From assembly GCA_034722915.1 (NCBI GenBank), contig JAYEOK010000168.1:6016-70015 (forward strand): DNA of 64,000 nt, in the 5' to 3' direction. This document shows, piece by piece, positions 7,367 through 35,843 of this stretch; within the stretch, counting starts at the first letter, position 1; each line of letters starts with the position of its first letter. A model generated the notes under the pieces. The model was not told the origin of the DNA and ran no database searches. It was given only the letters and a program-made list of their open reading frames with translations. The stretch is from Thermodesulfobacteriota bacterium. GTDB taxonomy: Bacteria > Desulfobacterota > Desulfobulbia > Desulfobulbales > Desulfocapsaceae. The position numbers were made by a program, and so were the translations under genes.

Positions 7367-7472
7367 CCCGGTTCAACCGGAAACAATTCAGTTCACTGGA
7401 TAAGTGCCTTATCAGAATATGTTCAAAAAAAACAGGTAAGCGTAGACTCCGAGAAAATATTCTGTAAGGCAC
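7367..7472 (-). mobile_element. TTA-type mini-MITE stack (34-bp tail unit plus GTGCCTT-TIR body carrying a 17-bp micro-insert)
   Basis: TAA flanks at 7364-66 and 7473-75; reverse complement of 9000..9086 and 26145..26233. Confidence 0.8.
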
Positions 7473-7618
7473 TAACGCTCACCAGTGGGTGTTATTACCT
7501 TCACCAGATTCTTTTTAAGAATACACGAAAAAAATTTATAAGATACTCAATATCGAATAAGAAATTGTAAAATTTATGATTTGCGCGCCCAACATATGAA
7601 GCTTTTTGTTTGACCATC

Positions 7619-7664
7619 AAAAAAAAATCGCAGTTCCCACCAAAAGGTGGAAACTGCGATTTTA
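7619..7664 (-). terminator. Intrinsic terminator downstream of the YeeE gene
   Basis: AAAATCGCAGTT-CCACC-AAAA-GGTGG-AAACTGCGATTTT; the A-run reads as a U-tract on the minus strand. Confidence 0.8.
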
Positions 7665-7709
7665 TCATAATTCTCTACCCAAAAACAAAGAAATTGACAG
7701 CCCCTGAAA

Positions 7710-8969
7710 TCACATGGGTACAATCAATTTATTTGTATCTTCATTCCAGGTTACAATCAGATACCAGACCATCATGATAAAAGCAATCAAGAGAAGGGTT
7801 GGGCCATATCCCATGACATCAGGGAGATAAACATACGATCCGAGCATACCCTCTTTTTCCAGGTGGATCTCATCCGGGCCATAATTCTGGAACCATTTGG
7901 TCATCAGTGAGTTGGAAAGAGCAAAGAAAGGTACAACCATGATCAGTTTTATCTGGCCTTCGCCTACACGCCACAAAGTACCGGAACCACAACCACCGGC
8001 AAGCATGGCACCAAGACCAAAAATAAAACCACCAACCACACCACCCCAACCAAAAGTGCCACGCACATAGTTGATAGGATGGAGAACAGGATCGCCACCA
8101 TGGGCAATAGGTACACTGTATTTTAATACTGCACCACCGATGGCAAGCAGCAGAATGGACAGGGCAACAGATTTTGCAAGAGTACAGTCACCGGTCATAT
8201 GAGGCTCACGAAAACCCTGAACCATACACCAGCGTCCACGCTGCATGGTGTAACCAAGTGCTGCGGCAATCATAAGAATTCCAGAGAGCGATGCGATATA
8301 GTCGCTGTCTTCATTTCCTGCATAGACGTAAGCTCCCCCGATAAGAACAACAAGGGCACCTATTGCGAGAAGATTTTGAACTCCATTGGAAATATTAATA
8401 GTTCCGGAACCGCCGTCACCCCATGAAATGTATTCCATCTCCATGTACAGCAATTTCAAACCAAGAAGAACACCGATAACAAGTCCAAACCACATGGTAA
8501 AACCGTTTGCAGCAAGGTTTCCAATGGCGTTATACATTCCACCGACATTACAGCCACCGGCAAAGGTAGAACCAACACCCATTAAAATACCTGCAAGTAC
8601 AGCTTTGACCATTTCGCGGTGCGGGGGAATCCGAAAAGCAAAATCTTTTCCAAGACAGGCGGAAATAAAAGCACCTGCAACAAAGCCAATACCAATTACA
8701 GAACCTGAACTGGTAAAAATACCTTTAGGTGCCTCATCATAAAGGCCTAAAAGTCCGTTTTCAGCTCCTATAACGGTATTCAGTCCGTAAATAACCCAGT
8801 CACCCCAGTTTCTGATAGCACCAACCGCCCCCCAGGGACGCCACCAGGCCATAATCAGCAGAGAGAGAAAAGCAACAATGGCACCGACCGCTGTTGGATT
8901 CCACTCCGACTGACAACACGTTTTGTAAAGTGATTTCACCTTACTTTTCATCACACTTTCTTCACTCAT
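7710..8969 (-). CDS. YeeE/YedE-family sulfur-compound (thiosulfate-type) transporter
   Basis: Multi-TM; conserved Cys motifs GGCNVG, QRGRWC, LAGGCGSG. Confidence 0.9.
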   Translation of the reverse strand: MSEESVMKSKVKSLYKTCCQSEWNPTAVGAIVAFLSLLIMAWWRPWGAVGAIRNWGDWVIYGLNTVIGAENGLLGLYDEAPKGIFTSSGSVIGIGFVAGAFISACLGKDFAFRIPPHREMVKAVLAGILMGVGSTFAGGCNVGGMYNAIGNLAANGFTMWFGLVIGVLLGLKLLYMEMEYISWGDGGSGTINISNGVQNLLAIGALVVLIGGAYVYAGNEDSDYIASLSGILMIAAALGYTMQRGRWCMVQGFREPHMTGDCTLAKSVALSILLLAIGGAVLKYSVPIAHGGDPVLHPINYVRGTFGWGGVVGGFIFGLGAMLAGGCGSGTLWRVGEGQIKLIMVVPFFALSNSLMTKWFQNYGPDEIHLEKEGMLGSYVYLPDVMGYGPTLLLIAFIMMVWYLIVTWNEDTNKLIVPM

Positions 8970-8999
8970 ACCTCTCCTCCTTCCGTCAGATTATAATTA

Positions 9000-9183
9000 G
9001 TGCCTTACAGAATATTTTCTTTTTTTTTGAACATATTCTGATAAGGCACTTATCCAGTGAACTGAATGGTTTCCGGTTGAACCGGGTTAGTGCCTTACAG
9101 AATATTTTCTTGTTTTTTTCGCAGGAAATTTTCTGATAAGGCACTTATCCAGTGAACTTAACATTATTTTCGGTTAAACCGGG
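9000..9183 (+). mobile_element. Tandem pair of TTA-type mini-MITE stacks (body plus 34-bp tail, twice)
   Basis: TTA-GTGCCTTACAGAATATTTTC...TAAGGCAC-TTA-TCCAGTGAAC...AACCGGG-TTA repeated at 9000..9086 and 9090..9183. Confidence 0.85.
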
Positions 9184-9357
9184 TTCGTAACGGTGTTACT
9201 TATCCAAGTAAGAGTTTTCTTTACCCTTGCCCACAGCTTTTGTCAAGCATCTAAGGCACAAGAAGCGTTTTTTTTACACAAAAAAACAGTAACATTGAGC
9301 TATAAAAACAAGCAGTTAAGCACCAACGAAACACTTGAATAGCCATTCATTTTGCCC

Positions 9358-9386
9358 TTGACATAATCTCCCGCCTAAAGTATACG
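9358..9386 (+). promoter_or_regulatory. Candidate sigma70 promoter of the tusA-dsrE operon
   Basis: TTGACA-N17-TATACG about 115 bp upstream of tusA. Confidence 0.45.
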
Positions 9387-9501
9387 TCTGACTGTTATCG
9401 TATCAGTGTACTGTTGCTGTATACTGAGTGAAGCTTTTTCAGACAGAAAAACAATTACGTTTATCAGTCTACCGAAACAAAATTTCCAGGAGGAACATTA
9501 A

Positions 9502-9759
9502 ATGAGTGACATCAAAGTTGCTGAAGACGGACTTGCTGTAGCTGCTACACTTGACGCAAAAGGCCTGAGCTGCCCCATGCCTCTTCTTCGTACTAAAAAA
9601 GAAATTGGCAAAATCGCATCTGGTGAAATCCTCCAGATAGATGGTACCGATCCCGGTTCCCGTAATGATATCCCAGGCTGGTGTGCCCGCGCTGGACACG
9701 AGTATCTTGGAGAGAAAGAGGAATCCGGTTATATCAGCTTTTTCGTAAAAAAAGGTTGA
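9502..9759 (+). CDS. tusA: TusA/SirA-family sulfur carrier protein
   Basis: LDAKGLSCPMPLL (CPxP), GTDPGSRNDIPGWC; RBS AGGAGG. Confidence 0.92.
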   Translation: MSDIKVAEDGLAVAATLDAKGLSCPMPLLRTKKEIGKIASGEILQIDGTDPGSRNDIPGWCARAGHEYLGEKEESGYISFFVKKG

Positions 9760-9810
9760 TTAATTAGCAATTTCCAATTTAGTTTTTTTTTACACGGAGG
9801 ATAAAGCAAA

Positions 9811-10143
9811 ATGTCTGCTGATCCAAATAAACTCGCTGTTTTTGTAACCTCACCGCAGCATATGCGACACGTAATTGGTGTTGCTGAAGCTGCCAAGAAA
9901 GCCGGCAAACAACCCATGGTTTTCTTTACCTATAAATCAATCCATTTAACCAAAGATCCCCGTTTTGCAGCTCTTGCAGATCTTTGCGGAGAGGAAAATA
10001 TCGCCATTTGTGCTGACAGTTATACCTGCGAAGGTTATGACTCTGCTGCTGATATCCCTGCCGGTTTGAATGGCAACCAGATGCGAACTCAGGCATTCCA
10101 CGGCGCTCTGCTTGACGAGTGTGGAAAGTACATCGTATTATAA
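9811..10143 (+). CDS. DsrE-like sulfur relay protein
   Basis: 110 aa; LAVFVT...VFFT...ICADS DsrE/TusD-like pattern with a conserved Cys; RBS GGAGG; follows tusA. Confidence 0.7.
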   Translation: MSADPNKLAVFVTSPQHMRHVIGVAEAAKKAGKQPMVFFTYKSIHLTKDPRFAALADLCGEENIAICADSYTCEGYDSAADIPAGLNGNQMRTQAFHGALLDECGKYIVL

Positions 10144-10155
10144 GGAGCTTATGAA

Positions 10156-10515
10156 ATGGAATCTTTAAAAGTATATATTCTGATAGCGAACCGTATGTAT
10201 AATGACGGTGTACGCTCCGCACTGGGTCTTGCTGTAGAAAATCATTACGGCTACCCGGTTATCTTTAACGGCGAATTTCCTCCTTTCTCTACCTACATGA
10301 AAGAGAATATTTCCTGGATCATGGATATGGAAGGCCAGGTATACAGTTGTGGTGCCGCCATTCCTGAAGAAACATATGATGCCGAGCTTGAAGAGAATCT
10401 GATCAAAGAGATCGATCTCAAAGAACTTGGTGAGGCCATGCGTGAGGCTGATTACATTATTCCCTTTGGCCTTCCGAAACAGACTAATGAGCCACCACCA
10501 GCTTGTGCTGAATAA
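10156..10515 (+). CDS. DsrF/DsrE-fold hypothetical protein
   Basis: DGVRSALGLAV resembles the DsrF/TusC helix; RBS AGGAG; in operon. Confidence 0.55.
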   Translation: MESLKVYILIANRMYNDGVRSALGLAVENHYGYPVIFNGEFPPFSTYMKENISWIMDMEGQVYSCGAAIPEETYDAELEENLIKEIDLKELGEAMREADYIIPFGLPKQTNEPPPACAE

Positions 10516-10526
10516 GGAGAGATACA

Positions 10527-10700
10527 ATGAAAATTTTACAGGTATATCGTTCAGCTCCCAGTGATGAAACAAAAACACTGGTTGAAATTCTGAACCGTGA
10601 TCGTGATGCTGATGCTTTTGATTTAAATGTTGATGCTCCAGATTACGACCAGCTCGTTGAAAAAATATTTGCTGCTGACCAGACTGTTTGCTGGTGGTAG
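10527..10700 (+). CDS. 57-aa DsrH/TusB-like small protein (not in ORF track)
   Basis: AAGGAGA RBS; MKILQVYRSAPSDETKTLVEIL...DYDQLVEKIFAADQTVCWW; the DYDQLVE..F..D..V.W ending resembles DsrH/TusB. Confidence 0.65.
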   Translation: MKILQVYRSAPSDETKTLVEILNRDRDADAFDLNVDAPDYDQLVEKIFAADQTVCWW

Positions 10701-10725
10701 TCAAAGCTTTTTTTTCATAAAAGCT

Positions 10726-10760
10726 CCCCACTGTAATATTTGTTACAGTGGGGTTTTTTT
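10726..10760 (+). terminator. Intrinsic terminator of the tusA-dsr operon
   Basis: CCCCACTGTAA-TATTTG-TTACAGTGGGG followed by T7. Confidence 0.85.
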
Positions 10761-10788
10761 GTTCAATCCCAAGCCCCCCTGTTCAGCT

Positions 10789-12369
10789 CTATCCCAACCG
10801 CACAGACTCGCCTAATTTCGGAACAAATGCGTTGTAACCTATTTGCCGAAGATGCTCTGCAAAAGAGAGTGACTGCTCCTCCTCGCCATGCACCACTGCA
10901 ATTTTCCTGATATTTAAATTTGATTCCTGCAAAAAACGGGTCATCTCATTCTTATCACCATGGGCACTGAATCCACCAAGCATAACAACATGTGCCTTAA
11001 GCTGGTAGTCGGAATTATAGAACCTGATGGTTGGAACCTCTCCTTTTCGCCCTGACTCCGCATATTTCTGACCAAGATCCAGAAGTCTTCTCCCCAGGGT
11101 ATTTCCTGCCATATACCCCACAATGAGCACTGTGTTTCTTTCATCCTGTATTTTATGTCTGAGATGATGGAGAATACGGCCACCCTCACACATACCTGAA
11201 CCTGCAATCACTATGTGAGGTCGCTCATCCCTGTTGAGTGCCATGGACTCCTCCACTGAACCTACAAAATTGATTTCTTTAAAAAGAAAAGGATTTTTTC
11301 CGTTTTCAAGAAATGTTTCATGGGTTTCATCATCATATGTCTCTGGATGTTCACCAAATACTTTTGTCAATTTATTTGCCAGTGGACTGTCCACATAAAT
11401 AGGCATTTTGGGTACTTTTCCTTCCATATACAGCTCATGAAGGTAATAAATAATTTCCTGAGTTCTGCCAAAAGCAAATGCCGGGATCATAATAGAACCG
11501 CCACGCTTTTCTGTCTTGATCAAAATTTTCTGTAGCATTGGTTTTAAGTCCATGACCGGTTTATGCACACGATTTCCATAGGTACTTTCCATAATCAGCA
11601 AATCGATATCTCTGTCTTCTTCAGCAAATTCCAAGGTAGGATCCTGAATAATTGGTTTATCAAAACGACCAATATCACCTGTGAAAAGAATCGAAGACTG
11701 TTTACCTTTTTCACGAACTTTAACATGAATCATGGCGGAACCGAGAATATGACCGGCATCATAAAGGGTACATATCGCATCTTTCCCTACCTCTATGGTG
11801 TGCTTATAAGGATAGCCCTTAAAAAAACCCAGCGAATTTTCTGCATCATTACTTGTATACAGGGGATCAATTTTGTTGAGATTATATTTATTCAGCAGAC
11901 GATTAATTTCACCGGTGTTTAACCTATGCTTCTTAGACTGCAGGAGTTTTTTTATCTTTTTTGCTTCGCTTTTTGAAATTTTTGTATCATTTGAAGAACT
12001 GCTCCTTTTGTACATGAAATTTTTAACGGTTTTATAATTAAGATATTGTGCATCCGATTCCTGAATGCGTGCAGAATCGCTGAGAAGATGTGCAGCAGCT
12101 GCGGCAGTTGCTCTGGTACAGACAATACGACCATTAAATTCATCTTTGGTGAACAAAGGAATACGGCCGCAGTGATCAATGTGAGCATGGGAAAGCAAAA
12201 TAGATGAAATCAATTCAGGAGCAAATGGAATTACCCGGTTACGCTCCGCACTTTCCTTTCTTTTTCCCTGAAACAGGCCACAATCAAATAAAAGCACATC
12301 ATCATCCGTCACAAGCATATGCATGGAGCCTGTAACCTGACGCACAGCACCACAAAAAACAATATACAT
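10789..12369 (-). CDS. MBL-fold beta-CASP metallo-hydrolase (RNA-processing, YSH1/TTHA0252-like)
   Basis: LLSHAHIDHCG, AGHILGSA, MESTYG, FAFGRTQE, SGMCEGGRILHHL, FSAHGD. Confidence 0.9.
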   Translation of the reverse strand: MYIVFCGAVRQVTGSMHMLVTDDDVLLFDCGLFQGKRKESAERNRVIPFAPELISSILLSHAHIDHCGRIPLFTKDEFNGRIVCTRATAAAAAHLLSDSARIQESDAQYLNYKTVKNFMYKRSSSSNDTKISKSEAKKIKKLLQSKKHRLNTGEINRLLNKYNLNKIDPLYTSNDAENSLGFFKGYPYKHTIEVGKDAICTLYDAGHILGSAMIHVKVREKGKQSSILFTGDIGRFDKPIIQDPTLEFAEEDRDIDLLIMESTYGNRVHKPVMDLKPMLQKILIKTEKRGGSIMIPAFAFGRTQEIIYYLHELYMEGKVPKMPIYVDSPLANKLTKVFGEHPETYDDETHETFLENGKNPFLFKEINFVGSVEESMALNRDERPHIVIAGSGMCEGGRILHHLRHKIQDERNTVLIVGYMAGNTLGRRLLDLGQKYAESGRKGEVPTIRFYNSDYQLKAHVVMLGGFSAHGDKNEMTRFLQESNLNIRKIAVVHGEEEQSLSFAEHLRQIGYNAFVPKLGESVRLG

Positions 12370-12394
12370 AATAAAATCCTCCAACAGTTGTTTA

Positions 12395-12555
12395 GTGCCT
12401 TACTCGTTAATTCCTGTCACTCTTTTCAGTACCCCTTGAGGGGTATAAAAAACAGGTAAGCATAGACTCCGAGAAAATGAAAATTTCGATTAACGTTAGC
12501 AAGTTAGACATACCAACAAGGCACTTATGCCGGCCTCACTTACCGTTTACCGGTG
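12395..12555 (+). mobile_element. TTA-type MITE stack (long body plus 28-bp tail) carrying both micro-inserts
   Basis: TTA flanks 12392-94 and 12556-58; palindromic insert 12420..12445; 17-bp insert 12455..12471. Confidence 0.85.
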
Positions 12556-12578
12556 TTACAGTTATCTGGCTTTTTGTA

Positions 12579-13667
12579 TCAACTACTTTCCATCAACAAA
12601 TCATGAAAAACAGGTCTGAATTCCTTAATCTTCCAATTATCCCGACTGGGATGAACCCGGTTGGTAAGCAATACCGCAATACAATCTTTTTCAGGATCTA
12701 TCCAAAATGATGTTCCGGTAAAACCAAGATGACCAACACTCTTCTTTGAAAAATATTTACCGCTACTTGAATCTTTTTCAGAAACCATATCAAAGCCCAT
12801 GGTCCATGTTGACTGACCTACCCGTGTCAGAATCTTCGATACAAGTTCATTTGAATACGCTTGATGCTTCCCCCTGCCCTGCCATTGATCAAGCAGTTGT
12901 TCGCAAAAACAGCTCACTCCCTGAAGTGTTCCAAACAAGCCGGCATGTCCGGCCACTCCTCCAATGGCCCTGCAATTATCATCATGCACAGTCCCACAAA
13001 GCATTTTTTCGCTCCATAAACACTTTTCAGTACTCACATAGGGCCTGTTTCCTTTTTCAGATAAACCTGGGAAAAAAAGGTCATTTTGAAGTCCTGAAGG
13101 TGTATATATGCAGGAACATGCCAATGCACCAATATCATTCGCCGTTATTTTTTCAATTATGAGACCAAGAAGCATGAAGCCAATATCACTATAACAATGA
13201 ATTCTCCCTGGTTTTGATAACAGTTTTTCTCTAAAAATATTTTTAAAAAGCTGCTCTTTTCTGTTCTGTTCGGGAATTTTAATCAGCTCATTAAAATAAT
13301 CTCTATACGGGGGAAATCCAGAACAATGGGACATAAGCTGTTTTACTGTTATTTCACTTTTATCAGGAGGACAAAATGAAAAAATTTCAATCAGTCTTGT
13401 TTCCGGTGTAATACATTTTCTGTGAAAAAGATTGAGTAAAACAGGGACAGTCGCAAGTGGTTTGGTAAGAGATGCAAGATCAAAAATATGATCTTTGCTG
13501 AGCTGTTTTATTTCAGGGTTTCGTTCAGCATAACCATAATATTTCATCAAACGATAATAATACCCATCTGACCACCTTGAAAATGAAAAAGCAGCTCCTG
13601 AAAAAACATTATTATTTAAAGCTGTTACAAATAAATTTTCTATTTTTTCAACTCTCTTTTCATCCAT
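12579..13667 (-). CDS. Serine hydrolase, beta-lactamase/AmpC family
   Basis: FDLASLTK (SxxK), YSDIGF, VHDDN, GHAGLF, GHLGFTGTSFWIDP. Confidence 0.9.
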   Translation of the reverse strand: MDEKRVEKIENLFVTALNNNVFSGAAFSFSRWSDGYYYRLMKYYGYAERNPEIKQLSKDHIFDLASLTKPLATVPVLLNLFHRKCITPETRLIEIFSFCPPDKSEITVKQLMSHCSGFPPYRDYFNELIKIPEQNRKEQLFKNIFREKLLSKPGRIHCYSDIGFMLLGLIIEKITANDIGALACSCIYTPSGLQNDLFFPGLSEKGNRPYVSTEKCLWSEKMLCGTVHDDNCRAIGGVAGHAGLFGTLQGVSCFCEQLLDQWQGRGKHQAYSNELVSKILTRVGQSTWTMGFDMVSEKDSSSGKYFSKKSVGHLGFTGTSFWIDPEKDCIAVLLTNRVHPSRDNWKIKEFRPVFHDLLMESS

Positions 13668-13679
13668 TCAAATTCCCTT

Positions 13680-14027
13680 ATTCCAATAACTCTCCGTAAA
13701 TGAAAATATCATTTAAAAATCTTGTATTTTTACCCACTTTACACTAATATAATCAAAAATGAAGTTTCTTATTATCGTACTGTTTTTCCATATAAATTTT
13801 TAATTATTTTTTTCATTTTCAACAACTTTTCAACAGCCTTTGTTAAAAGATTATTCATAACTTAGTTGATAAACTGTTTAAAACCGGAAATTAACAAATT
13901 TTCTCTTTTTTTTCCACAACACACTGTTTATAAAAATTTTTATTATTTTAATATGTTACGTTTATATTAAACATACTAACCGCCTTAATAACAATAATAA
14001 AAAGATTATTTAATAAAGAGATATCTC
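13680..14027. promoter_or_regulatory. Putative replication origin oriC
   Basis: Very AT-rich; DnaA-box-like TTTTCCACA 13910-18, TTTTCAACA 13816-24 and 13827-35, TTATTCATA 13851-59, TTTTCCATA 13784-92; CCGCC then TAA TAA CAA TAA TAA (13986-14000) resembling DnaA-trios; directly upstream of dnaN. Confidence 0.6.
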
Positions 14028-15158
14028 ATGACACTGAATTGTACTGTATCACGATCTGACTTAATGGAAGGATTGAATAGCCTGCAGAATATAACAAATA
14101 AACGGGTCACCTTAGCCATCCTTTCCAATGTTCTTATTGAAACTGCAGATGATAGTCTCATTCTCACAGGAACTGATCTTGAAATAGGATTACGGGTAGA
14201 AGTACCTGCTGAAATCCATGATCAGGGTACCTTGACCCTGCCAAGTAAAAAGATTTTCGAAATAGTACGTGAATCAGGATCTGATTTCATAACTGTACAG
14301 GAAACTGAAAACAGCTGGGTAATTATATCTGCAGGCTTAAGTACCTATAATCTTGCTGGTATGGCAAGTGATGAATTTCCTGAGTTTCCTGAATTTGATG
14401 AAGATAATTTTGTTTCTTTTGAGGCTGGTATCTTCGCAGACCTTATTGATAAAGTTATTTTTTCTGTGGCCAATGATGAAGAAAATGCCTATTCACTGAC
14501 AAATGTTCTTTTTGAAACAGAAAAAAGAGATGAAAGATCCTATGTCCGTATGATCTCATCCGATGGTCATCGTCTTTCTATCATGGAAAAGGATGTGGCA
14601 GCTGATATAGATATTCTTGACATACAACCGGGAACATTGATTCCTAAAAAAGGTATTCAGGAACTCAAAAAATTCTGTGATAATTGTGATACTGTTGAAC
14701 TTTCTTTTGAGGAAAAACAACTCGTTGCAAAAAACGATGAATCTATCATGGTTATACGCCTTAAAAAAGGCGATTTTCCACAATACAATGCCATAGTTGA
14801 TGCTGTTCAGCTTGAAAATAAAATACAGATAGAAAAAAATCCTTTCCTTGATTCACTCAAACGAATCAACCTTTTTACTGAAGATATCTTTCACACCATT
14901 CAATTAGAAATTGAAAATGGTAAGATGATTCTCAGTTCGCAGAATGTTGATCTTGGAAATGCAAAAGATGTGCTGGATGTACAGTATGACGGTGAACCTC
15001 TTTTATTAGGTTTTAACTGCCGTTATTTTATTGAAGCTCTCCAGGTTATGGAATGTGATGTGGTTGATGCCTATATAAATTCCAATAACAGTCCGTGCCT
15101 GATGAAATCGGATATAGATGAAGGCTTTTTAAGTATAATAATGCCTATGCAACTCTAA
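14028..15158 (+). CDS. dnaN: DNA polymerase III beta sliding clamp
   Basis: GTDLEIGL, SSDGHRLS, LIPKKG, GDFPQY, GFNCRYF, IIMPMQL. Confidence 0.97.
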   Translation: MTLNCTVSRSDLMEGLNSLQNITNKRVTLAILSNVLIETADDSLILTGTDLEIGLRVEVPAEIHDQGTLTLPSKKIFEIVRESGSDFITVQETENSWVIISAGLSTYNLAGMASDEFPEFPEFDEDNFVSFEAGIFADLIDKVIFSVANDEENAYSLTNVLFETEKRDERSYVRMISSDGHRLSIMEKDVAADIDILDIQPGTLIPKKGIQELKKFCDNCDTVELSFEEKQLVAKNDESIMVIRLKKGDFPQYNAIVDAVQLENKIQIEKNPFLDSLKRINLFTEDIFHTIQLEIENGKMILSSQNVDLGNAKDVLDVQYDGEPLLLGFNCRYFIEALQVMECDVVDAYINSNNSPCLMKSDIDEGFLSIIMPMQL

Positions 15159-22716: not shown

Positions 22717-23164
22717 GAACTTATCGCCCTGCGGGCGGGTTTTAAAAAGAGAATGTCGAATGTCGAACAGGTAAGCGCAGACTCCGAGGAATATCGAATA
22801 TCGATCGGAATAAAAAACGACGGATCAAGGGCCTTTCCCCTTCTGCGGTTCGACATTCCTTGTTCGATATTCGATATTCGTCTTTTAATGTTTGGTATTC
22901 ATTTTTTAAGCTTCGTAAAAAATGAAAATTCCTATGCTATGAACTTAGTGCCCTTTGGGCGGGTTTTAAAAAGAGAATGTCGAATATCGAACAGGTAAGC
23001 GCAGACTCCGAGGAATATCGAATATCGATCGGAATAAAAGACGAAAAATCAAGGGCCTTTCCCCTTCTTCGGTTCGACATTCCTTGTTCGATATTCGATA
23101 TTCGTCCTTTAATGTTCGGTATTCATTATTTAAGCTTCGTAAAAAATGAAAATTCCTATGCTAT
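22717..23164 (+). repeat. Tandem pair of 224-bp hairpin-forming elements (family C)
   Basis: Units 22717..22940 and 22941..23164 start with GAACTTA; internal TCGAATA/G 7-mers form a long inverted repeat; third copy at 32214..32440. Confidence 0.9.
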
Positions 23165-26144: not shown

Positions 26145-26456
26145 GTGCCTTACAGAATATTTTCTTGTTTTTTTTGAACATATTCTGATAAGGCACTTAT
26201 CCAGTGAACTGAATGGTTTCCGGTTGAACCGGGTTAGTACCTTACTCCCTAATTCCTGTCATAAAAAAACAGGTAAGCGTAGACTCCGAGAAAATGGAAA
26301 GTATTTTTAATGTTAGTAAATTGCAAATACCACCAAGGTACTTACACCCCACAAGGGGGTACTAAAGTGAGTCCCGGCTTACCGTTCATCACCGGTATTA
26401 GTACCTTACAGAATATTTTCTCGGAGTCTGCACGTACTGTTCATCACCGGTTTCAG
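26145..26456 (+). mobile_element. Array of three TTA-type MITE stacks
   Basis: 26145..26233 (short body plus 34-bp tail), 26237..26397 (long body, both micro-inserts, tail), 26401..26456 (chimeric remnant), each separated by TTA. Confidence 0.85.
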
Positions 26457-28869: not shown

Positions 28870-29140
28870 GTGCCTTACTCCTCAAAAGCTGTCACTCTTT
28901 TCAGTACCCCCTTGAGGGGTATAAAAAACAAGAAAATGGAAAGTTATATTAAAGTTAGCAGGTTAAACATACCAACAAGGTACTTATGCCGGCTTACTGT
29001 TCATCACCGGTGTTAGCAAGTTGGATATACCAACAAGGCATTTACACCCCTCAGGTAAGCACCCTAAAGAGACAGGGTATAAACTCCGACTCCGAGGGGG
29101 TACTGAAAAGAGTGCCGGCCTCACTTACCGTTTACCGGTG
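28870..29140 (+). mobile_element. Two stacked TTA-type MITE units with nested micro-inserts
   Basis: 28870..29012 full; 29016..29140 partial body plus palindromic insert that itself contains a 41-bp GGTAAGC...ACTCCG insert (29054..29094). Confidence 0.85.
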
Positions 29141-29176
29141 TTATCTTTTAATCCCCTGTCTCCTTTACTCTAACCA

Positions 29177-30442
29177 TCAACCCAGAAAACGCACCAGAAA
29201 GAGGCTTAATAGAGGAAAATAAGTAATAATGACCAGAGTGATCATCAACAGGCCAAGGAAAGGCATGGTAGCTCCGTAGAGCTGAATTACCGGCCGATCA
29301 AAGCGATAGCTGGCCAGGAAGAGATTCAGCCCGACAGGGGGCGTACAGTAGCCGATTTGCAGATTTGTGAGGAAGATGATGCCAAGGTGGATCAGGTTGA
29401 CATCGTAGCCCCTGGCAATGGGAACAATAAGCGGAACCACCAGCACCAGAGCGGAAAAGATATCAAGCATTGAGCCGACAATGAGGAGAAAGATGTTCAA
29501 GAGCAGGAGAAAGGTATACTTGCTGGAGATATACTGGCGGATAAATTCAAACAGACGCATGGGCACTTCCTGATCCACCAGAAAGTTGGTGGCTGCCATG
29601 GATGCGGCAAGAATCACCAGGATACCGCCAAAGAGCATCATGGATTTTACCATGATACCTGGTAGTTGCTTGAGGCTGATATCACGATATAAGAAAACTT
29701 CGACTATCAGCACATAGAGAGCGGTTATGGCTGCTGCTTCTCCTGCAACCAGGAAGCCGCCATAAATACCGCCAAGGACGATAAAGGGCAGCGGCAGTTC
29801 CCATGCAGTTTCTTTCAGGCAGCCGAGTATTTCCCGCATGTTTACCTGTTCCTGCTGTTTTGGTTTACGAGGACTTTTATACATGGAGTAGGCTATCAGC
29901 AGGCTGAGCATAAAGACCCCGGGCAGGATTCCGGCCAGGAACAGGTGGTCAATCCGGACTTCAGCGATAACACCGTACAAAATGAGTGGCAGACTTGGCG
30001 GAAACAGCAAACCAAGGCTTCCGGAGGAGGTAATTAATCCAAGGGAAAATTTTTCCGAGTAATTATCTTTGAGAAGTGCTGGAAGCAGCAGACCGCCGAG
30101 AGCAAAGATGGTCACTCCTGATGCACCGGTAAAAGCGGTAAAGACCGCACAAACCAGCAGCGAAACAACGGCCAGTCCGCCGGGAAGCCAGCCTAACAGA
30201 GTGCGTGACAGTCTGAGCAACCGTTTGGGGGTTTCACTTTCAGAAAGCATGGTACCGGCAAAGATAAACAGGGGCAAGGCAAGCAGAAGTGGAGTATCCG
30301 CCAGACGTGACATCTCAATGATCACCACCGAGATGTCTATCTCTACGCTGTAGAATGAGAGCAGAGCTAAGGCGGCGATTACAATGAATAAAGGGCTGCC
30401 CAGCAGGGCAAGGGCCAGGGTAAACAGCTTGAGAATATTCAC
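29177..30442 (-). CDS. dctM: TRAP transporter large permease DctM
   Basis: LLALPLFIFAG, GSLGLLFPPSLPLILY, IGYCTPPVGLNLF. Confidence 0.95.
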   Translation of the reverse strand: MNILKLFTLALALLGSPLFIVIAALALLSFYSVEIDISVVIIEMSRLADTPLLLALPLFIFAGTMLSESETPKRLLRLSRTLLGWLPGGLAVVSLLVCAVFTAFTGASGVTIFALGGLLLPALLKDNYSEKFSLGLITSSGSLGLLFPPSLPLILYGVIAEVRIDHLFLAGILPGVFMLSLLIAYSMYKSPRKPKQQEQVNMREILGCLKETAWELPLPFIVLGGIYGGFLVAGEAAAITALYVLIVEVFLYRDISLKQLPGIMVKSMMLFGGILVILAASMAATNFLVDQEVPMRLFEFIRQYISSKYTFLLLLNIFLLIVGSMLDIFSALVLVVPLIVPIARGYDVNLIHLGIIFLTNLQIGYCTPPVGLNLFLASYRFDRPVIQLYGATMPFLGLLMITLVIITYFPLLSLFLVRFLG

Positions 30443-31008
30443 GCTCCACTCCCTGTTTTCCGGCTTCCCGGCATGGAGATAACACCGGTAAACGGTGAGT
30501 GACGGTTTTTGAGGAGTAAGGCTCTGATAGCCTTGATGTCAGCAGCAATTGCAAGGAGAAAGTGTATGGCCATCAGAGCAAAGGCAACAGGGAAAATCAA
30601 ATTCCAGATCCAGGAGGGTACGCTGAGTAAGGAGGGGCCTCCAAAGAGGAATTCGTTGCGGACAAAGGTGACTGCCGCCCAGGTGAGAACTGCAGCAACA
30701 AGTGATGAAAAGAGATCAATCACCAGTACTATCCACACTTTTATCTGTTCCGGTGCCAGGTACCCAAGCACATCAATACCAATATGTTTTTTTTCTCTGG
30801 TTGCCACCACTGCACCCAACATACCGGACCACAGGACAAGGTAACGCAGCATCGGATCGGCCCAGAGTATGCCGCCTGAAAAGAACGTGCGCATACCGAT
30901 CTGCAGACAGGCAAGTGTGATCATCGCCAAAAGCATAAGGCAGAGCAGACCGTTAATCAGTCGTTTTTCAAAGGTTAAAATCTGCCGGATCACCTGTTGA
31001 TAGTTCAT
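30439..31008 (-). CDS. dctQ: TRAP transporter small permease DctQ
   Basis: 4 TM; WADPMLRYLVLWSGMLG...HIGIDV. Confidence 0.9.
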   Translation of the reverse strand: MNYQQVIRQILTFEKRLINGLLCLMLLAMITLACLQIGMRTFFSGGILWADPMLRYLVLWSGMLGAVVATREKKHIGIDVLGYLAPEQIKVWIVLVIDLFSSLVAAVLTWAAVTFVRNEFLFGGPSLLSVPSWIWNLIFPVAFALMAIHFLLAIAADIKAIRALLLKNRHSPFTGVISMPGSRKTGSGA

Positions 31009-31016
31009 GGTACCCT

Positions 31017-31104
31017 CCAGGAGGCTGTCCGAAAATGCACTTTTCCTTCAACTCTTCGTTATTTGCAAAATTTTATCCTCGGACAAGCTCCCGGGAGCTT
31101 GTCC
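31017..31104. mobile_element. Internally deleted CTAG-family MITE between dctP and dctQ
   Basis: CCAGGAGGCTGTCCGAAAATG ... CTCGGACAAGCTCCCGG followed by a further GGAGCTTGTCC end. Confidence 0.7.
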
Positions 31105-31116
31105 CCTGCCCTCTTT

Positions 31117-32136
31117 TTATTTGGCCTGGCTTCTGAAATCGTCAAGCAGCCTTATAGTTTCCTGATAGATTTCCTGGCTGAAGGCTGTCCCTTGCATCCG
31201 CTTTGCAGTCTCTTTACTCATCTTACGCATGATTTCCACATCTTCCTGGTCAGGAGTGACCATGGAAACCCCATTATCCTGTAAAACCTTCCTGGAGTCA
31301 TCGTTGCTTTTTCTGGTGTCGGTGATGAGCTGTCTGAAATGTTTTTCGGCTGTTTTTTTGATCATCGACTGGTAAGTGTCCGGCATCTTCACGAATTTCT
31401 TACGATCAAGCAGTAGGCCTCCATAGGCATAACCAAATGGAATGTCAGTGATATATTTTGTTTTGGTAAACCACTGCAAGACAATAGCGCCATACATGGA
31501 ATTAAAGACTGTGTCCACCATTCCGGTCTGCAGGGAGGTGAGCACATCGGGGACGGCAAGTGGCAGAGGGGTGATTCCTATGGTTTGCAGGTAGGCTATG
31601 CTGATGGGATCACCGTCCGGAGCCCAGACTTTGCTTTGTTTCAATTTGCCTAGAGTGGGTACCGGCGAAATGGACATAGAGTAGACAAAACCAACTTCAG
31701 TCATGGCAATCAGCTCTAATCCTTTATCTACAAAGGATTTACTGAACAAGGGCCACAGTTCTTGTTTCACATGATCGACTTCTTCATAGGAACGAAAGAG
31801 AAAGGGCAAGCTCATGACGCGAAAATCCCCTGCTATTCTACCGATACCTGTCATGGTAAAGCCACCGCCATGCAGTTGTCCTATTTGCATTTTGCGGTAC
31901 ATAGCCCGATCATCTCCCATAATACCACCCGGGTATATCTTGAATCCGATTTCACCTTTACTTTTCTCTGTCACCTCTTCGGCGAAATCGCGAAATCGTT
32001 TGATCCAGATAGAACCCTCTGGCGCAATGGTCGCCAGCTTGAAGAGATACCTGGGTTTGGCATGTGCCTGGCTGCTGATGAGCAGAGCACAAATGAGAAT
32101 GAAAAATAATTGAAGATTTTGTTTACAGAAAGACAT
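31117..32136 (-). CDS. dctP: TRAP substrate-binding protein DctP (TatP-type)
   Basis: FKLATIAPEGSIW, IYPGGIMGDD, LTSLQTGMVD; signal peptide. Confidence 0.92.
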   Translation of the reverse strand: MSFCKQNLQLFFILICALLISSQAHAKPRYLFKLATIAPEGSIWIKRFRDFAEEVTEKSKGEIGFKIYPGGIMGDDRAMYRKMQIGQLHGGGFTMTGIGRIAGDFRVMSLPFLFRSYEEVDHVKQELWPLFSKSFVDKGLELIAMTEVGFVYSMSISPVPTLGKLKQSKVWAPDGDPISIAYLQTIGITPLPLAVPDVLTSLQTGMVDTVFNSMYGAIVLQWFTKTKYITDIPFGYAYGGLLLDRKKFVKMPDTYQSMIKKTAEKHFRQLITDTRKSNDDSRKVLQDNGVSMVTPDQEDVEIMRKMSKETAKRMQGTAFSQEIYQETIRLLDDFRSQAK

Positions 32137-32196
32137 GCATTTCTCCTGTTCTACACGTAGGGGACTGACTTTATTTTTCCTTGCTTGAATGCGCCC

Positions 32197-32474
32197 TAAG
32201 GCACTTATCCAGTGAACTTATCGCCCTGCGGGCGGGTTTTAAAAAGAGAATGTCGAACAGGTAAGCGCAGACTCCGAGGAATATCGAATATCGATCGGAA
32301 TAAAAAACGACGGATCAAGGGCTTTTCCCCTTCTGCGGTTCGACATTCCTCGGAGTCTTCGCTTACCTGTTCGATATTCGTCTTTTAATGTTCGGTATTC
32401 ATTTTTTAAGCTTCGTAAAAAATGAAAATTCCTATGCTATGAACTTAACAGTATTTCCGGTTGAACCGGGTTAG
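32197..32474 (+). mobile_element. Family C element inserted in a 34-bp tail unit
   Basis: TAAGGCAC-TTA-TCCAGT[GAACTTA...GCTAT]GAACTTAACAGTATTTCCGGTTGAACCGGG-TTA; two 17-bp inserts at 32260..32276 and 32351..32367. Confidence 0.8.
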
Positions 32475-32608
32475 AAAAAAATTCAGTCCCCTTGGTTCAT
32501 TGGAAAAATTAAGGTAAGCACCCTGAGAAACCAGGGTATAAACTCCGACTCCGAGTCTCCCGGATTTGCTGCACCTGAATAGTTACAATAATTTTTAAGG
32601 CACTAAAA

Positions 32609-32764
32609 ATGACAATCTCGTAAAAAGGTCTATGTAAGATGGATTTGTAAAAAACTTCATATTCGAGGCGCGGAAAAACTATATTATTTCGGCGTACTAA
32701 GGTACGTTGAAATGATTTGGTTTTTGCAGCAACGAAGAAGATGAAGAGTTTTTACGATTCCATC
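32609..32764. mobile_element. Family D MITE, empty version
   Basis: ATGACAATCTCGTAAAAA ... TTTTTACGATTCCATC imperfect TIRs; collinear with 52143..52623 minus its nested inserts. Confidence 0.8.
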
Positions 32765-33620
32765 AAAAATACAGGTCTACCTTGTCAAGCATCTTGGTCG
32801 CATTTCGTTTGGCCACCTGGTTGGCAAGAAGTAAATTCGGTTGACTTGCCAGATTAAAGTCAAGCACTTCCTGTAACAGATCGACATAAAGTTCACGGTC
32901 AAAGGCCATCCGGGCATAGGTCTGAGCATAGAGGACAAGGGCTGGAAGAAATTGTCGCTTGCTGATGATAAGGGCCTGTTCAAAATGGTGTTGACTGAGC
33001 TCTGGTTTTCCACCAAGGAGTGGCGGTTTTGAGCCATTGTATGCACCTAGAAAGAGATGAGCACCGCCGTGGTAATAGGTTTCATCCAGTTCAATAACAC
33101 GCAGCATGATTTGTTCCACCCTGACTAGCTGGGCCAGGGATTCGGGTGAACCGTCCTGGTGGCGTATCCATGTTGTCCAGCCATTACCTGCCCAGAACAG
33201 CAGATCTACATCTCCGCTATCCAAGTTGGTCAGGGTCTGTTGCAGGTTTGAAAAAGGGAGGGTGCAAATGCTATTGAGATCATCGCCATCCCACAGTAAT
33301 GACAGGCCGTACAATCTGGCCTTGATACTTACTGTTGCTGCACGTTCTGGCCTGTTGCAGGCATCAAGTGCGGCAGCATAACCGGTAAAGGCCTGAGTAG
33401 CTGTCATCAACAGCTTTTTATCATCTGGTGCTGATGCAACCATGCTGTCGATCATCAACAGGAAGCTGGGTGTTCCCTCACAAACAAGGTCTATATCCGT
33501 CTGCCTTTGCAGGTTTTCCATGGTGGGTCGCATGAGGGAGTTGACCATCATACCGGCACAACCACTTAAGACAGGTAAGAGAGTGAGAAGAAGGATTATC
33601 CTCCAAAGTATTGTCATCAT
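32763..33620 (-). CDS. TatT TRAP-associated TPR lipoprotein
   Basis: Lipobox VLSGC; LDETYYHGGAHLFLG, GGKPELSQHHFEQA, NQVAKRNA; upstream of dctPQM. Confidence 0.85.
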   Translation of the reverse strand: MMTILWRIILLLTLLPVLSGCAGMMVNSLMRPTMENLQRQTDIDLVCEGTPSFLLMIDSMVASAPDDKKLLMTATQAFTGYAAALDACNRPERAATVSIKARLYGLSLLWDGDDLNSICTLPFSNLQQTLTNLDSGDVDLLFWAGNGWTTWIRHQDGSPESLAQLVRVEQIMLRVIELDETYYHGGAHLFLGAYNGSKPPLLGGKPELSQHHFEQALIISKRQFLPALVLYAQTYARMAFDRELYVDLLQEVLDFNLASQPNLLLANQVAKRNATKMLDKVDLYF

Positions 33621-33742
33621 AGATAACTTTTATCAATCGTAGAGCAGACTGTCAAGATTTGCGATAAAGCGGTCGAGGAAATAAAAATGCCCTTTTTTAC
33701 CGTGAGAGTAAAACAGGGCGTTTTTTCGAGGGAGGGATTGGT

Positions 33743-34213
33743 TCAGAATCCCCAGAGCAGGCTTCTCTTAACCCACCCGGTGAGGCCTGACTCATGTTTG
33801 ACCTGCGCCCACCCCTGTTTCTGGGACAGGGTTTTAAAAACAACGCCATAATATGCTTTACCAACAACTTTATATTTGGTTCCGGGCCCACTTCTAATAT
33901 TTATCTTCTTTTTCTTCCCCCTGTTTACCTTAACGATCATGTGCGGTTTTGGTGATAAAAATTGCTTATAAACCCATCCTGTATCGTTTTCAAAATCTTT
34001 TACCTTAACCCAACTGCCCTTCCGGGTCAGAACTTTTAAGGGAAAGCCGTCTCCGTATTCCCATTTTGATGAATATTTAGTGCCGGGTCCTGATCGAAGC
34101 TGCACGTTATCACCTTTAATACTGTTCATTTTCGCATAGGCGGATGTGACTAGAAAGCAGGAGAGAAAAAAAATTGTTATGGTAATTTTGAATTTAGTTG
34201 AAAAAATATGCAT
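33743..34213 (-). CDS. Secreted tandem bacterial SH3-domain protein
   Basis: Signal peptide; two repeats VQLRSGPGTKY / INIRSGPGTKY ... GWV; ends LLWGF. Confidence 0.88.
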   Translation of the reverse strand: MHIFSTKFKITITIFFLSCFLVTSAYAKMNSIKGDNVQLRSGPGTKYSSKWEYGDGFPLKVLTRKGSWVKVKDFENDTGWVYKQFLSPKPHMIVKVNRGKKKKINIRSGPGTKYKVVGKAYYGVVFKTLSQKQGWAQVKHESGLTGWVKRSLLWGF

Positions 34214-34281
34214 TGTGACTGCCCTTGTAGGAAGAAAAGAAAGTTATTATTGAATGCGCCCTTACTATTAAACTAGCCTAA

Positions 34282-34393
34282 CACCGGTGATGAACGGTAA
34301 GCCGGCACTCTTTTCAGTACCCCCTTGAGGGGTATAAGTACCTTATCAGAATATTTTCTTTGAAAAAAAACAAGAAAATATCCTGTAAGGCAC
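34282..34393 (-). mobile_element. TTA-type MITE stack (short body plus palindromic insert plus 26-bp tail)
   Basis: TAA flanks 34279-81 and 34394-96; shows bodies and tails assort independently. Confidence 0.85.
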
Positions 34394-34427
34394 TAAATAG
34401 TTTTCCATTTCCAGAAATTAATTGAGT

Positions 34428-35345
34428 TTACTGCACAGCTTTTTTATTCACTATTTTTTGTTTTTTTCCAAAAATTTTTTGATTGGCTGTTAGTGAAATG
34501 TTGCCACAGGTCAGATGAATTGCTCCAAACTGACATGCTTCACTCATACAACGCATGCACAAAATACACTCTGGACTTCCTACAACTTTATTAAACTGTA
34601 TTCCCATTGGGCAAATATTTGCGCATGCCCCGCAATCAGTACATTTTGATTCGATCAGATCAAGCTTAAGCAGTGATATCTTGTTGAAAAGACCATAAAA
34701 GGCACCAAGTGGACATGTGGTTTTACAAAATGGTCTGGAAGTGTAAACACTCCAGACCATAAAAACAATCAACCAGAAGAGTTTGTTATAAAATAGATAG
34801 CCCAGGGTCGTGCGCAGATCCGGTTGCAAGAGTAACATTGGCAAGCCAGCCTCAAGGGTACCCGCCGGACATACATACTTGCAAAACCATGGCACCCCCA
34901 TCCCCCACTCGTTTGTGAGCAGGAGTGGAAAGAGAAACACAAAAGCAATGAGCATAAAATATTTTATATACCTGAGTATTGGCAGTACTTCCCTTTTTTT
35001 TCCACATGATACCTTGTGTAGCAGGTCCTGAATAAATCCAAATGGACAAAGCCACCCACACGTGATTCTCCCTGTTGCGGTAGCAATCAGACCCAATGTA
35101 CCAACAACATAGGAACTGAAAAAATAAGTCCCTGCTTCAAGTGAAAATCTAACACTTAGTATGAGTTGTTGAATTGCACCAATTGGGCAATAGGTGGTTG
35201 AGGCCGGGCAGGAATAACAGTTGAGTCCCGGGGAGCACATTGCCTTCATTGGCCCCTGGTAAATGTTTTTGCTTAAGGGAAAGAGCAAATAACTATTGCT
35301 GAGAAATGTTGTAAGAATTTGAACAAATTTACGAATAGATTCCAT
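34428..35345 (-). CDS. Membrane 4Fe-4S binding protein (NapH/MauN-like)
   Basis: LNCYSCP, CPIG, CGWLCPFG, CKYVCPAG, CKTTCPLG, CTDCGACANICP, CILCMRC..ACQ. Confidence 0.9.
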   Translation of the reverse strand: MESIRKFVQILTTFLSNSYLLFPLSKNIYQGPMKAMCSPGLNCYSCPASTTYCPIGAIQQLILSVRFSLEAGTYFFSSYVVGTLGLIATATGRITCGWLCPFGFIQDLLHKVSCGKKREVLPILRYIKYFMLIAFVFLFPLLLTNEWGMGVPWFCKYVCPAGTLEAGLPMLLLQPDLRTTLGYLFYNKLFWLIVFMVWSVYTSRPFCKTTCPLGAFYGLFNKISLLKLDLIESKCTDCGACANICPMGIQFNKVVGSPECILCMRCMSEACQFGAIHLTCGNISLTANQKIFGKKQKIVNKKAVQ

Positions 35346-35485
35346 TAAATGTTACCGTTTATTGCCTTGACAACTGTTTTTATTGTCATGTTTACAAATG
35401 GTTTTGTTACTCATTGCCGAGATCATCTCAATAACAGAATTTGAGATGGTTTGAACAAACGAATTGACTGTCGCGTGACTTGAAC

Positions 35486-35638
35486 TTACCCGATACCAAT
35501 GCACTCCAGACAAATATTCCATGACTGTTCCAGCACCCGCTGTGGTTCATTAGCATTAATCCCAAAGATAAAAAGTGAGAGGAAAACAATGAAGGAGAGT
35601 AAGGTTATTTTGTTGAGTTTTTTCTTTTTGTTTTTCAT
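35486..35638 (-). CDS. 50-aa CD1871A-type CxxC membrane peptide (not in ORF track)
   Basis: MKNKKKKLNKITLLSFIVFLSLFIFGINANEPQRVLEQSWNICLECIGIG; TM helix plus terminal CLECIGIG. Confidence 0.8.
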   Translation of the reverse strand: MKNKKKKLNKITLLSFIVFLSLFIFGINANEPQRVLEQSWNICLECIGIG

Positions 35639-35663
35639 AGTAGTCGCATGTTTTTACTGTTAA

Positions 35664-35843
35664 GGAACGTACATTAAATAACCTGAACATCTTTCTTGCC
35701 CTTCGGAGTCTCGTGCCTCGCTTACCTGTTCCGCCAGCAATACTTTAAAAACCGTTACATACAGGGAGTATGCAAAGCTTTTTAAAGTGTCGCTGACGAA
35801 AAAATTGCGGCGAAATATGTTCAGGTTATTTAATTCCCGTTCC
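35664..35843. mobile_element. Family E MITE (27-bp TIRs, TAA duplication) with a 23-bp micro-insert
   Basis: GGAACGTACATTAAATAACCTGAACAT ... ATGTTCAGGTTATTTAATTCCCGTTCC; 180 bp = 157-bp copy at 52182 plus 23. Confidence 0.9.

Follow-up and report, generated by a model that had tools for sequence, protein, structure and literature searches.

A 17- to 41-nt sequence inserted between the A's of (C)A|A(G) in unrelated repeats of Desulfobulbales, probably a micro-element mobilised in trans

Introduction

It is usually assumed that DNA must have at least two protein-binding ends to be mobile, and these together take up roughly 100 nt or more. To our knowledge, the small dispersed repeats (SDRs) of cyanobacteria, 21-27 nt long, are the sole described exceptions, and the mechanism of their movement has not been established since 2008. 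Elhai et al. 2008 (Genome Res 18:1484) are said to have presented SDR1-8 of Nostoc/Anabaena as 'very small mobile repeated elements', several of which reportedly share a predicted hairpin. Here, we describe a sequence, mostly 17 nt long, that is present in eleven copies in a 64,000-nt stretch of the genome of a Thermodesulfobacteriota bacterium of the order Desulfobulbales (assembly GCA_034722915.1, contig JAYEOK010000168.1, positions 6,016 to 70,015 of the forward strand; hereafter, the window). Comparison of filled and empty sites suggests that this sequence, which we call the module, is probably a non-autonomous micro-element of SDR-like kind, defined by its ends and mobilised in trans.

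The passages that treat SDRs in two later papers give a length of 21-27 nt for those of Nostocaceae (Elhai et al., 2008, via PMC4390886, PMC5861425), put SDR5's point of insertion between base 3 and base 4 of the HIP1 palindrome (PMC4390886) and state that, of the HIP1-rich cyanobacteria examined, only Nostocaceae yielded SDR-like repeats (PMC5861425). The repetitive extragenic palindromes (REP) and REPIN that are associated with RAYT proteins (Y1 enzymes of the HUH type) are short (20-40 nt), extragenic and of high copy number, and a single-copy HUH enzyme is presumed to mobilise them in trans (PMC3116915, PMC3733652).

The module resembles the SDRs in being tens of nucleotides long, dispersed, non-coding, restricted to one taxon and found as precise inserts in other repeats, and the enzyme behind SDR movement has likewise not been identified. 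It differs from them in that it is mostly 17 nt long and then free of any hairpin or dyad, with asymmetric 8-nt ends and a free middle, and in that its hosts are Desulfobulbales (Desulfobacterota) and not Nostocaceae. Module lengths are 17, 18, 23-27, 35 and 41 nt, and the commonest of them (17) lies below the SDR range. Because the organism is a member of Desulfobulbales, the module is at most an SDR analogue and not a member of that group. A first-pass annotation, made from the sequence alone, had stated that no element this small was described; this overlooks the SDRs, which are of a known kind, but it stands in so far as 17 nt is smaller and the phylum a different one. Full-text searches of the literature returned no description of such repeats in Desulfobulbales.

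The module would thus be a second, independent and smaller case of the SDR type, from another phylum. If this is true, its copies are the smallest mobile DNA elements known and offer a tractable model for the movement of cyanobacterial SDRs. Clean filled/empty pairs, an unambiguous 4-nt target, order-wide conservation and the existence of cultured hosts (Desulfopila aestuarii, Desulfobulbus rhabdoformis and Hydrosulfovibrio ferrireducens) make the mechanism open to experiment, and an enzyme needing only 7-8 nt ends, if it exists, would make an interesting tool for inserting DNA seamlessly.

Precise insertion into unrelated sequences

The genome to which the window belongs is a 3.94-Mb draft, fragmented into 332 contigs. 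Both strands of the window were searched for the pattern GGTAAGC-N(0-30)-ACTCCG, using dinucleotide shuffles as control. The search returned 10 exact matches, when 0.02 were expected and the shuffles gave at most 1. These correspond in position and strand to ten of the eleven copies that the first-pass annotation had listed, the eleventh (26422-26440) being degenerate (Table 1). The whole genome contains 233 copies, among them 136 of 17 nt, 21 of 18 nt, 22 of 23 nt and 7 of 24 nt. Another 46 bear a hairpin; the non-greedy pattern scores this form as 35 nt, and a second ACTCCG, present in most of these copies, brings it to 41 nt. The ten window copies against 0.02 expected, the 233 copies of the genome and the absence of any match to a reversed control pattern in the genome samples scanned demonstrate that the enrichment is not due to chance. 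Copies avoid genes: all those of the window sit between long open frames, and frames of 150 aa or more contain only 10 of the 233, although they make up 81% of the genome.

Presence and absence of the module are precise to the nucleotide. A gap-free empty paralogue was found elsewhere in the genome for 183 of the 218 testable copies, often 100% identical over 80 nt, and such precise optional insertion in other repeats is a trait of SDRs. The hosts that recur in the window are H1 and H2, two miniature inverted-repeat transposable elements (MITEs), the palindromic MITE H3 (with its right arm, H3r), the small palindromic module H4 and the E MITE. The filled/empty pairs that had been proposed within the window proved exact at AAAAAACA|AGAAAAT (12455 vs 28920-28939), at CGAACA|AGGAAT (32351 vs 22851-22873 and 23075-23097), at CCCCTCA|AGGGGG (29054 vs 59617-59631) and in the E MITE, which measures 180 nt at 35664-35843 and 157 nt at 52182-52338. 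The E copies of the genome include 31 of 157 nt that are identical and 10 of 180 nt that are likewise identical, the two sets differing solely by a 23-nt insert. The boundary of the insert cannot be shifted, as an A precedes its first base, a G, and an A follows its last base, also a G. Because it cannot slide either way, no base is duplicated or lost, and the proposed insertion without duplication therefore holds with unambiguous boundaries in the filled/empty pairs.

The polarity of the event is provided by hosts whose original state is recognisable. The remnant of an IS91-type transposase open reading frame (ORF) is interrupted by a 17-nt copy (C36:459-475); the deletion of exactly these 17 nt restores the frame (..GMVTYRSK|MTHGKDKKNF..), which identifies the event as an insertion. 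Further, two paralogous group II introns devoid of an ORF (Rfam RF02001, RF01998 and RF00029) contain 23-nt copies at two sites each, and the Rfam consensus of these introns is without the inserts. The intron copy on C262 has also been struck by an E MITE. A third intron site, ccgatggCA|AGggcgt, is filled in the homologous intron of another genome and empty in this one.

Both the site and the element are specific. A scan of five host sites for inserts of any kind showed that all inserts longer than 11 nt are family members. The empty loops of H4 read CAA (n=94) or CGA (n=70), and filled copies read CA..A in 11 of 11 cases. Host sites have also been hit repeatedly: 17/18-nt and 41-nt variants occupy the same position in each of H1, H2 and H4, and the two arms of H3 occur in all four fill states.

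The contexts of insertion are many and independent. The flanks of the copies of this genome were clustered together with loci of other genomes, which resulted in about 68 distinct sequence contexts, with MITEs, small palindromic modules, ORF-less group II introns and the IS91-type transposase remnant as hosts. Information common to these contexts is found only at positions -2 (C), -1 (A), +1 (A) and +2 (G), which argues against homology-driven transfer. A 190-nt MITE family common to several genera is filled at four sites across genomes, one of them reversed (cggA|Atatc). The earlier suggestion that the module is not simply inherited with one host agrees with the number of contexts, with the ORF remnant and the introns and with the occurrence of several variants per site. 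It had also been proposed to look for copies outside repeats: 15 copies lie between flanks that occur nowhere else in the genome, and the module is thus not confined to repeats.

The module and its target site

Short forms of the module consist of GGTAAGCG and AGACTCCG on either side of a variable middle of one base (C, T, rarely A), two bases or 7-11 bases. The middles of 7-11 bases often resemble slipped copies of GCGNA or GCGAG units, with two to three units in some. In the long form, the middle is a 22-nt segment made up of a hairpin with a 5-bp stem, ACCCT-N8-AGGGT, followed by ATAA. The ACTCCG hexamer at the 3' end is sometimes repeated in tandem, up to the six units that close a long-form copy of contig C100 (minus strand, 11993-12058). 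Tandem ACTCCG and repeated GCGNA middles suggest a slippage-prone sequence. The ends of the module are neither inverted repeats nor capable of pairing with each other, and the 17-nt form contains no dyad (GGTAAGCG compared with the reverse complement CGGAGTCT), as the 5-bp stem exists in the long form only. Constrained ends around a free middle are the pattern expected if the ends are recognised by something. The first-pass annotation was right about the fixed ends GGTAAGC and ACTCCG and the variable middle; however, short forms keep 8 + 8 nt, and the variants of the middle exceed those it had listed, with 1, 2, 7, 8, 9 and 11 nt also present.

The target is minimal. CA precedes 223-228 of the 233 genome copies and A follows 225 of them. 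The proposed target-site logo was built from the 68 or so contexts, two thirds of the cross-genome ones having been retrieved with a pattern containing CA..AG, and it contains information at -2 to +2 only: C in 51 (-2), A in 66 (-1), A in 61 (+1) and G in 40 (+2) of 68. A|A was observed again at 35 bystander copies in foreign loci, which were retrieved with no requirement on the flanks. CA|AG is thus correct in the main, but the target is better written as (C)A|A(G), as CA|AA, GA|AT and GA|AG sites occur.

Conservation in Desulfobulbales

The sequence is conserved across Desulfobulbales and bound to that order. GTDB species representatives hold the exact 21-mer CAGGTAAGCGYAGACTCCGAG in more than 105 contigs, nearly all of them from Desulfobulbales, the carriers being Desulfocapsa, Desulfocapsaceae, Desulfobulbaceae, Desulfurivibrionaceae and Desulforhopalus and including the isolates Desulfopila aestuarii DSM 18488, Desulfobulbus rhabdoformis DSM 8777 and Hydrosulfovibrio ferrireducens CB1MN. 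When the phylum was sampled evenly, 0 of 291 genomes outside Desulfobulbales had the 17-mer. Ten of 25 congeners carry 1-12 copies, versus 108 in this genome, and two viral contigs hold the module inside a MITE. The only 21-mer carriers labelled neither Desulfobulbales nor with a broader taxon are a contig of a metagenome-assembled genome (MAG) labelled Bathyarchaeia (L068) and a Desulfoarculaceae MAG (L030), in which the 21-mer lies within an H1-type MITE; they represent either mis-binned contigs or horizontal transfer.

Possible machinery and comparison with described elements

The mechanism that we propose starts with copies that would have been placed repeatedly over the history of Desulfobulbales, in a single orientation and with no duplication, between the A's of (C)A|A(G). 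The machinery would act in trans and recognise, in a sequence-specific manner, two ends of 7-8 nt. Copies would survive mainly where they are harmless, namely in MITEs, palindromic modules, ORF-less group II introns and dead insertion sequence (IS) genes, and their number would then grow passively as the hosts multiply, while the middle (1 to about 11 nt, or the 22-nt hairpin segment) and the 3' hexamer would expand by slippage. The first-pass annotation had considered an independently inserting minimal element; repeated insertion stands, and the copies would, on our reading, be non-autonomous and mobilised in trans. As a tentative proposal, an undescribed trans-acting machinery of Desulfobulbales, protein or RNA-guided, may use the two 7-8 nt ends to paste modules down to 17 nt between the A's of CA|AG.

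The structure of the junctions restricts the chemistry. DDE transposases are excluded because a target duplication would be expected and none is present, and serine, tyrosine and IS110-type recombinases are excluded because a repeated core would be expected at both junctions and none is seen; a serine- or tyrosine-recombinase core was considered and dropped, as no bases are repeated. Slippage is excluded as a route of insertion because the junctions lack microhomology. What remains is the single-strand chemistry of HUH enzymes (IS200/IS605, RAYT, IS91/Helitron), a homing-like process or an undescribed system. Blunt, orientation-specific and duplication-free insertion beside a short fixed target is the hallmark of HUH enzymes and many Y1 and Y2 genes are present in the genome; by this analogy, a single-strand 'peel and paste' enzyme of the HUH type is a possible, if rather doubtful, candidate for the machinery. 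A eukaryote-like CAG|GTAAG splice site, whose boundaries do not fit, and a tRNA anticodon-arm fragment were also considered and dropped.

Each of the described systems shares some properties with the module. In the case of REP and REPIN, the likeness resides in the REP-like hairpin with unpaired flanks of the long form and in the 8 RAYT-like genes of the genome, with at least one classical GTAG-REP/RAYT pair (C299). In contrast to them, the 17-nt form is not palindromic, the copies are not inverted doublets and no motif stands at the RAYT genes: the 17-nt form is not an imperfect palindrome with an unpaired GTAG or CGTC tag, and none of the 8 Y1 genes is the cognate RAYT gene flanked by the repeat. 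IS200/IS605 elements excise seamlessly, have subterminal hairpins at both ends and a length of about 100 nt or more, and their target is fixed on the 5' side only. The module shares with them and with PATEs a blunt, orientation-specific, duplication-free insertion 3' of a short fixed sequence (A at -1 in 66/68 and C at -2 in 51/68), but the following base (A) is fixed too, the two end hairpins are missing and no full-length partner element was found.

For IS91, the reported targets are CAAG/GAAC, and in some Helitron relatives the insertion falls between two T's, equivalent to A|A on the other strand. Like IS91, ISCR and Helitron elements, the module produces no duplication, has asymmetric ends and, in its long form, a hairpin a few bases before the 3' end, and Y2 genes are present in this genome. 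However, IS91 abuts an intact tetranucleotide, whereas the module splits CAAG into CA|AG; the IS91-type copies of the genome do not end in the motif, one of them being interrupted by the module, and no Y2 element shares its termini. The core dinucleotide that is repeated at both junctions of IS110 (bridge-RNA recombinase) elements, which have a DEDD transposase, is missing, with CAAG in the empty and CA-insert-AG in the filled site, and so are the terminal inverted repeats and target-site duplication of classical MITEs. Fungal mitochondria have mobile GC clusters and other ultra-short elements, which are non-coding, tens of bases long and optional, precise inserts in many places; they differ in being GC-rich palindromes of organelles, most of which come with a short target duplication, and are unrelated in sequence.

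A longer element from which the module could derive was sought by pairing every AGGTAAG(C) with an (A)CTCCGA 60-6000 nt downstream, with and without a filter for empty sites. Elements of 0.2-6 kb with such termini are absent from this genome, where the only pairings were adjacent short copies or long forms with a nested MITE, and none was found in 105 loci (730 kb) from about 60 other genomes. The full-length, transposase-bearing parent for which a search had been suggested is thus absent from this genome and from the foreign loci.

The genome encodes 8 intact RAYT-like Y1 proteins of about four groups, one IS110 protein (C163) and, of the IS91-type Y2 proteins, two intact ones as well as fragments. 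The HUH/RAYT- or IS110-like enzyme of the first-pass annotation is unproven: genes of these kinds are present, but none is flanked by the motif and an IS110 core repeat is lacking. Some of these genes have repeats or neighbours of their own. The Y1 gene at C299:20138-21281 has GTAG-tagged palindromes (GTAGGTTGGGTT..AACCCAAC) on either side, as in the textbook case of REP and RAYT, and CAAAATGAGACTTGACCCC repeats flank a second Y1 group (C85, C237). In the IS91-type element at C203:84-2158, a tyrosine-recombinase (integrase-like) ORF lies directly upstream of the Y2 transposase ORF.

Alternative explanations

Several observations weigh against a micro-element mobilised in trans. Regarding the enzyme, the motif is not found within 400 nt of any of the 8 Y1 genes, nor is it a high-copy k-mer within 1.2 kb of any of them; the Y2 contigs C305 and C203 have no motif at their ends, the single IS110 gene is not linked to it, and no recurrent gene stands beside the copies in other genomes. 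The numbers of Y1 and Y2 genes do not track copy number among 26 congeners, Y2 genes being present in 4/4 genomes with at least 5 copies and also in 7/14 genomes with none. Known HUH transposases require a hairpin for binding, and the 17-nt form has neither a hairpin nor an inverted repeat. Regarding the target, the logo is partly circular, given how two thirds of the cross-genome contexts were found, and the targeting of hairpin loops, suggested by cases like ccctcccgCA|AGgggaggg, was rejected as not significant (19/69 overall vs 14.9 expected in shuffles). Regarding the copies, each variant goes largely with one host family within the genome. Most copies are for this reason passengers, and the true insertion events more likely number a few dozen than two hundred. 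Finally, H1 and H2 share 8 + 7 nt at the site (AAAAAACA|AGAAAAT), and transfer between these two could for that reason be gene conversion.

The last of these observations are also the basis of the alternative that survives best, in which the module is a passive, optional part of host repeats that had a few illegitimate origins and was spread by transposition of MITEs and introns, gene conversion and template switching. Much of the copy number is indeed passive, riding on host MITEs, and the filled copies of E go back to one very recent event, after which E itself transposed with duplication of TAA. In addition to the association of variants with host families and the H1/H2 identity, H3 and H3r share ATATCGAACA|AGGAAT, nearly all copies lie within repeats, and a few chimeric junctions point to recombination at the insert. 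Nevertheless, about 68 contexts have only 2 + 2 nt in common and the boundaries are always exact; a microhomology of 2 nt would not yield identical ends every time. Insertions into the IS91-type ORF and three group II intron sites, the 15 copies with unique flanks and the cross-genus MITE family filled at four sites, one reversed, likewise point away from passive spread as the whole explanation, which we regard as unlikely. The single ancestral insertion that the first-pass annotation would have taken as a refutation was examined on trees of the host flanks: fill state is no more clustered than shuffled labels, in agreement with repeated insertion, but trees of repeats of about 100 nt are nearly uninformative.

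Another possibility is that the module is a motif under selection, functional in RNA (such as a loop module of transcribed repeats and introns) or as a protein-binding site, and copied via RNA, for example by an intron-encoded reverse transcriptase. The conservation of the ends across the order while the middle drifts and the presence of copies inside structured group II introns are compatible with it. Against this, most hosts are MITEs of the DNA type with TAA/TTA target duplications, Rfam contains no match to the module or its MITE hosts, the 17-mer has no convincing structure of its own, and a function would not account for the blunt insertion at CA|AG; we consider this explanation improbable. 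The idea that copies are excision footprints of a larger transposon with GGTAAGC.../...ACTCCG termini, the middle being repair filler, had been raised in the first-pass annotation, and fixed ends around a variable middle are superficially alike to such scars. It is, however, highly improbable: besides the absence of a longer element from this genome and from the other genomes scanned, the same 17-mer, with one variable position (mostly C or T, rarely A), is repeated across an order in a manner unlike random footprints, no target duplication is present, and the variants of the middle look like slipped internal units and not like filler.

A sequencing adapter, a primer or an assembly artefact, for which the 332-contig draft and a 9-nt identity (AAGAGACAG) of the long-form loop with what we take to be the Nextera mosaic end could speak, is virtually out of the question, as the 21-mer is found in contigs from dozens of independent projects and assemblers and in three isolates, the copies are always internal to contigs and in biologically coherent contexts, and the loop differs between copies. 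The adapter match that would have undone the first-pass annotation is thus limited to those 9 nt, and we judge this overlap coincidental, given the loop's variation from copy to copy and the many unrelated assemblies that contain the element. In the window, the loop (..TAAAGAGACAGGG..) lies at 29061-29078 and 32520-32537.

Copies and host repeats in the window and beyond

The copies of the module in the window, the empty sites and the two introns are collected in Table 1.

Table 1. Copies of the module, empty targets and intron hosts. Positions are those of the window unless a contig is given.
Feature	Position	Strand	Context
17-nt copy GGTAAGCGTAGACTCCG	7435-7451	+	loop region of an H1-type MITE (..GTTCAAAAAAAACA|AGAAAATATTCTG..)
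17-nt copy (GGTAAGCATAGACTCCG)	12455-12471	+	in an H2-type MITE; empty counterpart 28920-28939
17-nt copy, GCAG variant	22770-22786	+	left arm of palindromic MITE H3; right arm 22851-22873 empty
17-nt copy, GCAG variant	22994-23010	+	left arm of a second H3 MITE; right arm 23075-23097 empty
17-nt copy, GTAG variant	26272-26288	+	in an H2-type MITE
Degenerate copy (ACAGTACGTGCAGACTCCG)	26422-26440	-	5' end mutated; 3' end and right flank AGAAAAT intact
Empty target TATAAAAAACA|AGAAAATGG	28920-28939	+	H2 type
41-nt long form	29054-29094	+	GGTAAGC, hairpin ACCCT-N8-AGGGT, ATAA and ACTCCGACTCCG; in the CAAG loop of small palindromic module H4; empty counterpart 59617-59631
17-nt copy, GCAG	32260-32276	+	left arm of an H3 MITE; right arm filled too
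17-nt copy, GAAG	32351-32367	-	right arm (H3r) of the same MITE as 32260-32276
41-nt long form	32513-32553	+	atypical TAA|AG site in a low-copy repeat (..GGAAAAATTAA|AGTCTCCCGG..)
23-nt variant GGTAAGCGAGGCACGAGACTCCG	35704-35726	-	at GGCGGAACA|AAGGGC inside a 180-nt E MITE (35664-35843)
157-nt E-family MITE copy, target empty	52182-52338	-	site at 52213-52230
Empty target ACCCCTCA|AGGGGGT	59617-59631	+	H4 type
ORF-less group II introns	C275:3016-3685; C262:5571-6400		loci L127, L128; Rfam D1-D4 and D5-D6 matches, no reverse transcriptase ORF inside

In a few copies, the insert has a left host half from one family and a right half from a different one, as in H4-left|insert|H1-right; such junctions were found on contigs C26 (-16535), C30 (-48205), C71 (+9599), C168 (71784, outside the window) and C280 (-10335). 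They could result from recombination between inserts located in different repeats, leading to deletions, inversions and mosaic MITEs, or from misassembly. Empty sites show such junctions across families less often (2 of about 370, both H2/H1). The inserts may in this way act as portable identity between unrelated repeats and drive both rearrangements and the formation of mosaic MITEs with 'interchangeable parts'.

The E MITE has inverted ends GGAACG..CGTTCC, a TAA duplication and 52 copies in the genome. Since 31 + 10 of them are perfectly identical, the activity of E is current or very recent. TAAG is a frequent landing site, including that in the GG[TAA]GC of the module (C89:12210-12411, C131:12559-12760). 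Composite mobility of the long form with an E nested in GG[TAA]GC, a combination present at 4 host sites, was considered and set aside, as independent insertions of E are at least as likely, given that the E copies are 99-100% identical, the hairpin loops differ and E is often found in TAAG. H4 (..ACCCCTCAAGGGGGTACTGAAAAGAG..), for its part, is a palindromic micro-module of 26-27 nt with about 190 copies in the genome, and its window sites are 12419-12444, 28885-28912 and 59617-59645. It is itself an optional, precise insert, as in TGTCA|CTCTTTTCAGTACCCCTTGAGGGGTA|TAAAAAA compared with the plain H2 MITE, and its CAAG loop is a target of the module, so that the genome contains at least two nested families of ultra-small inserts.

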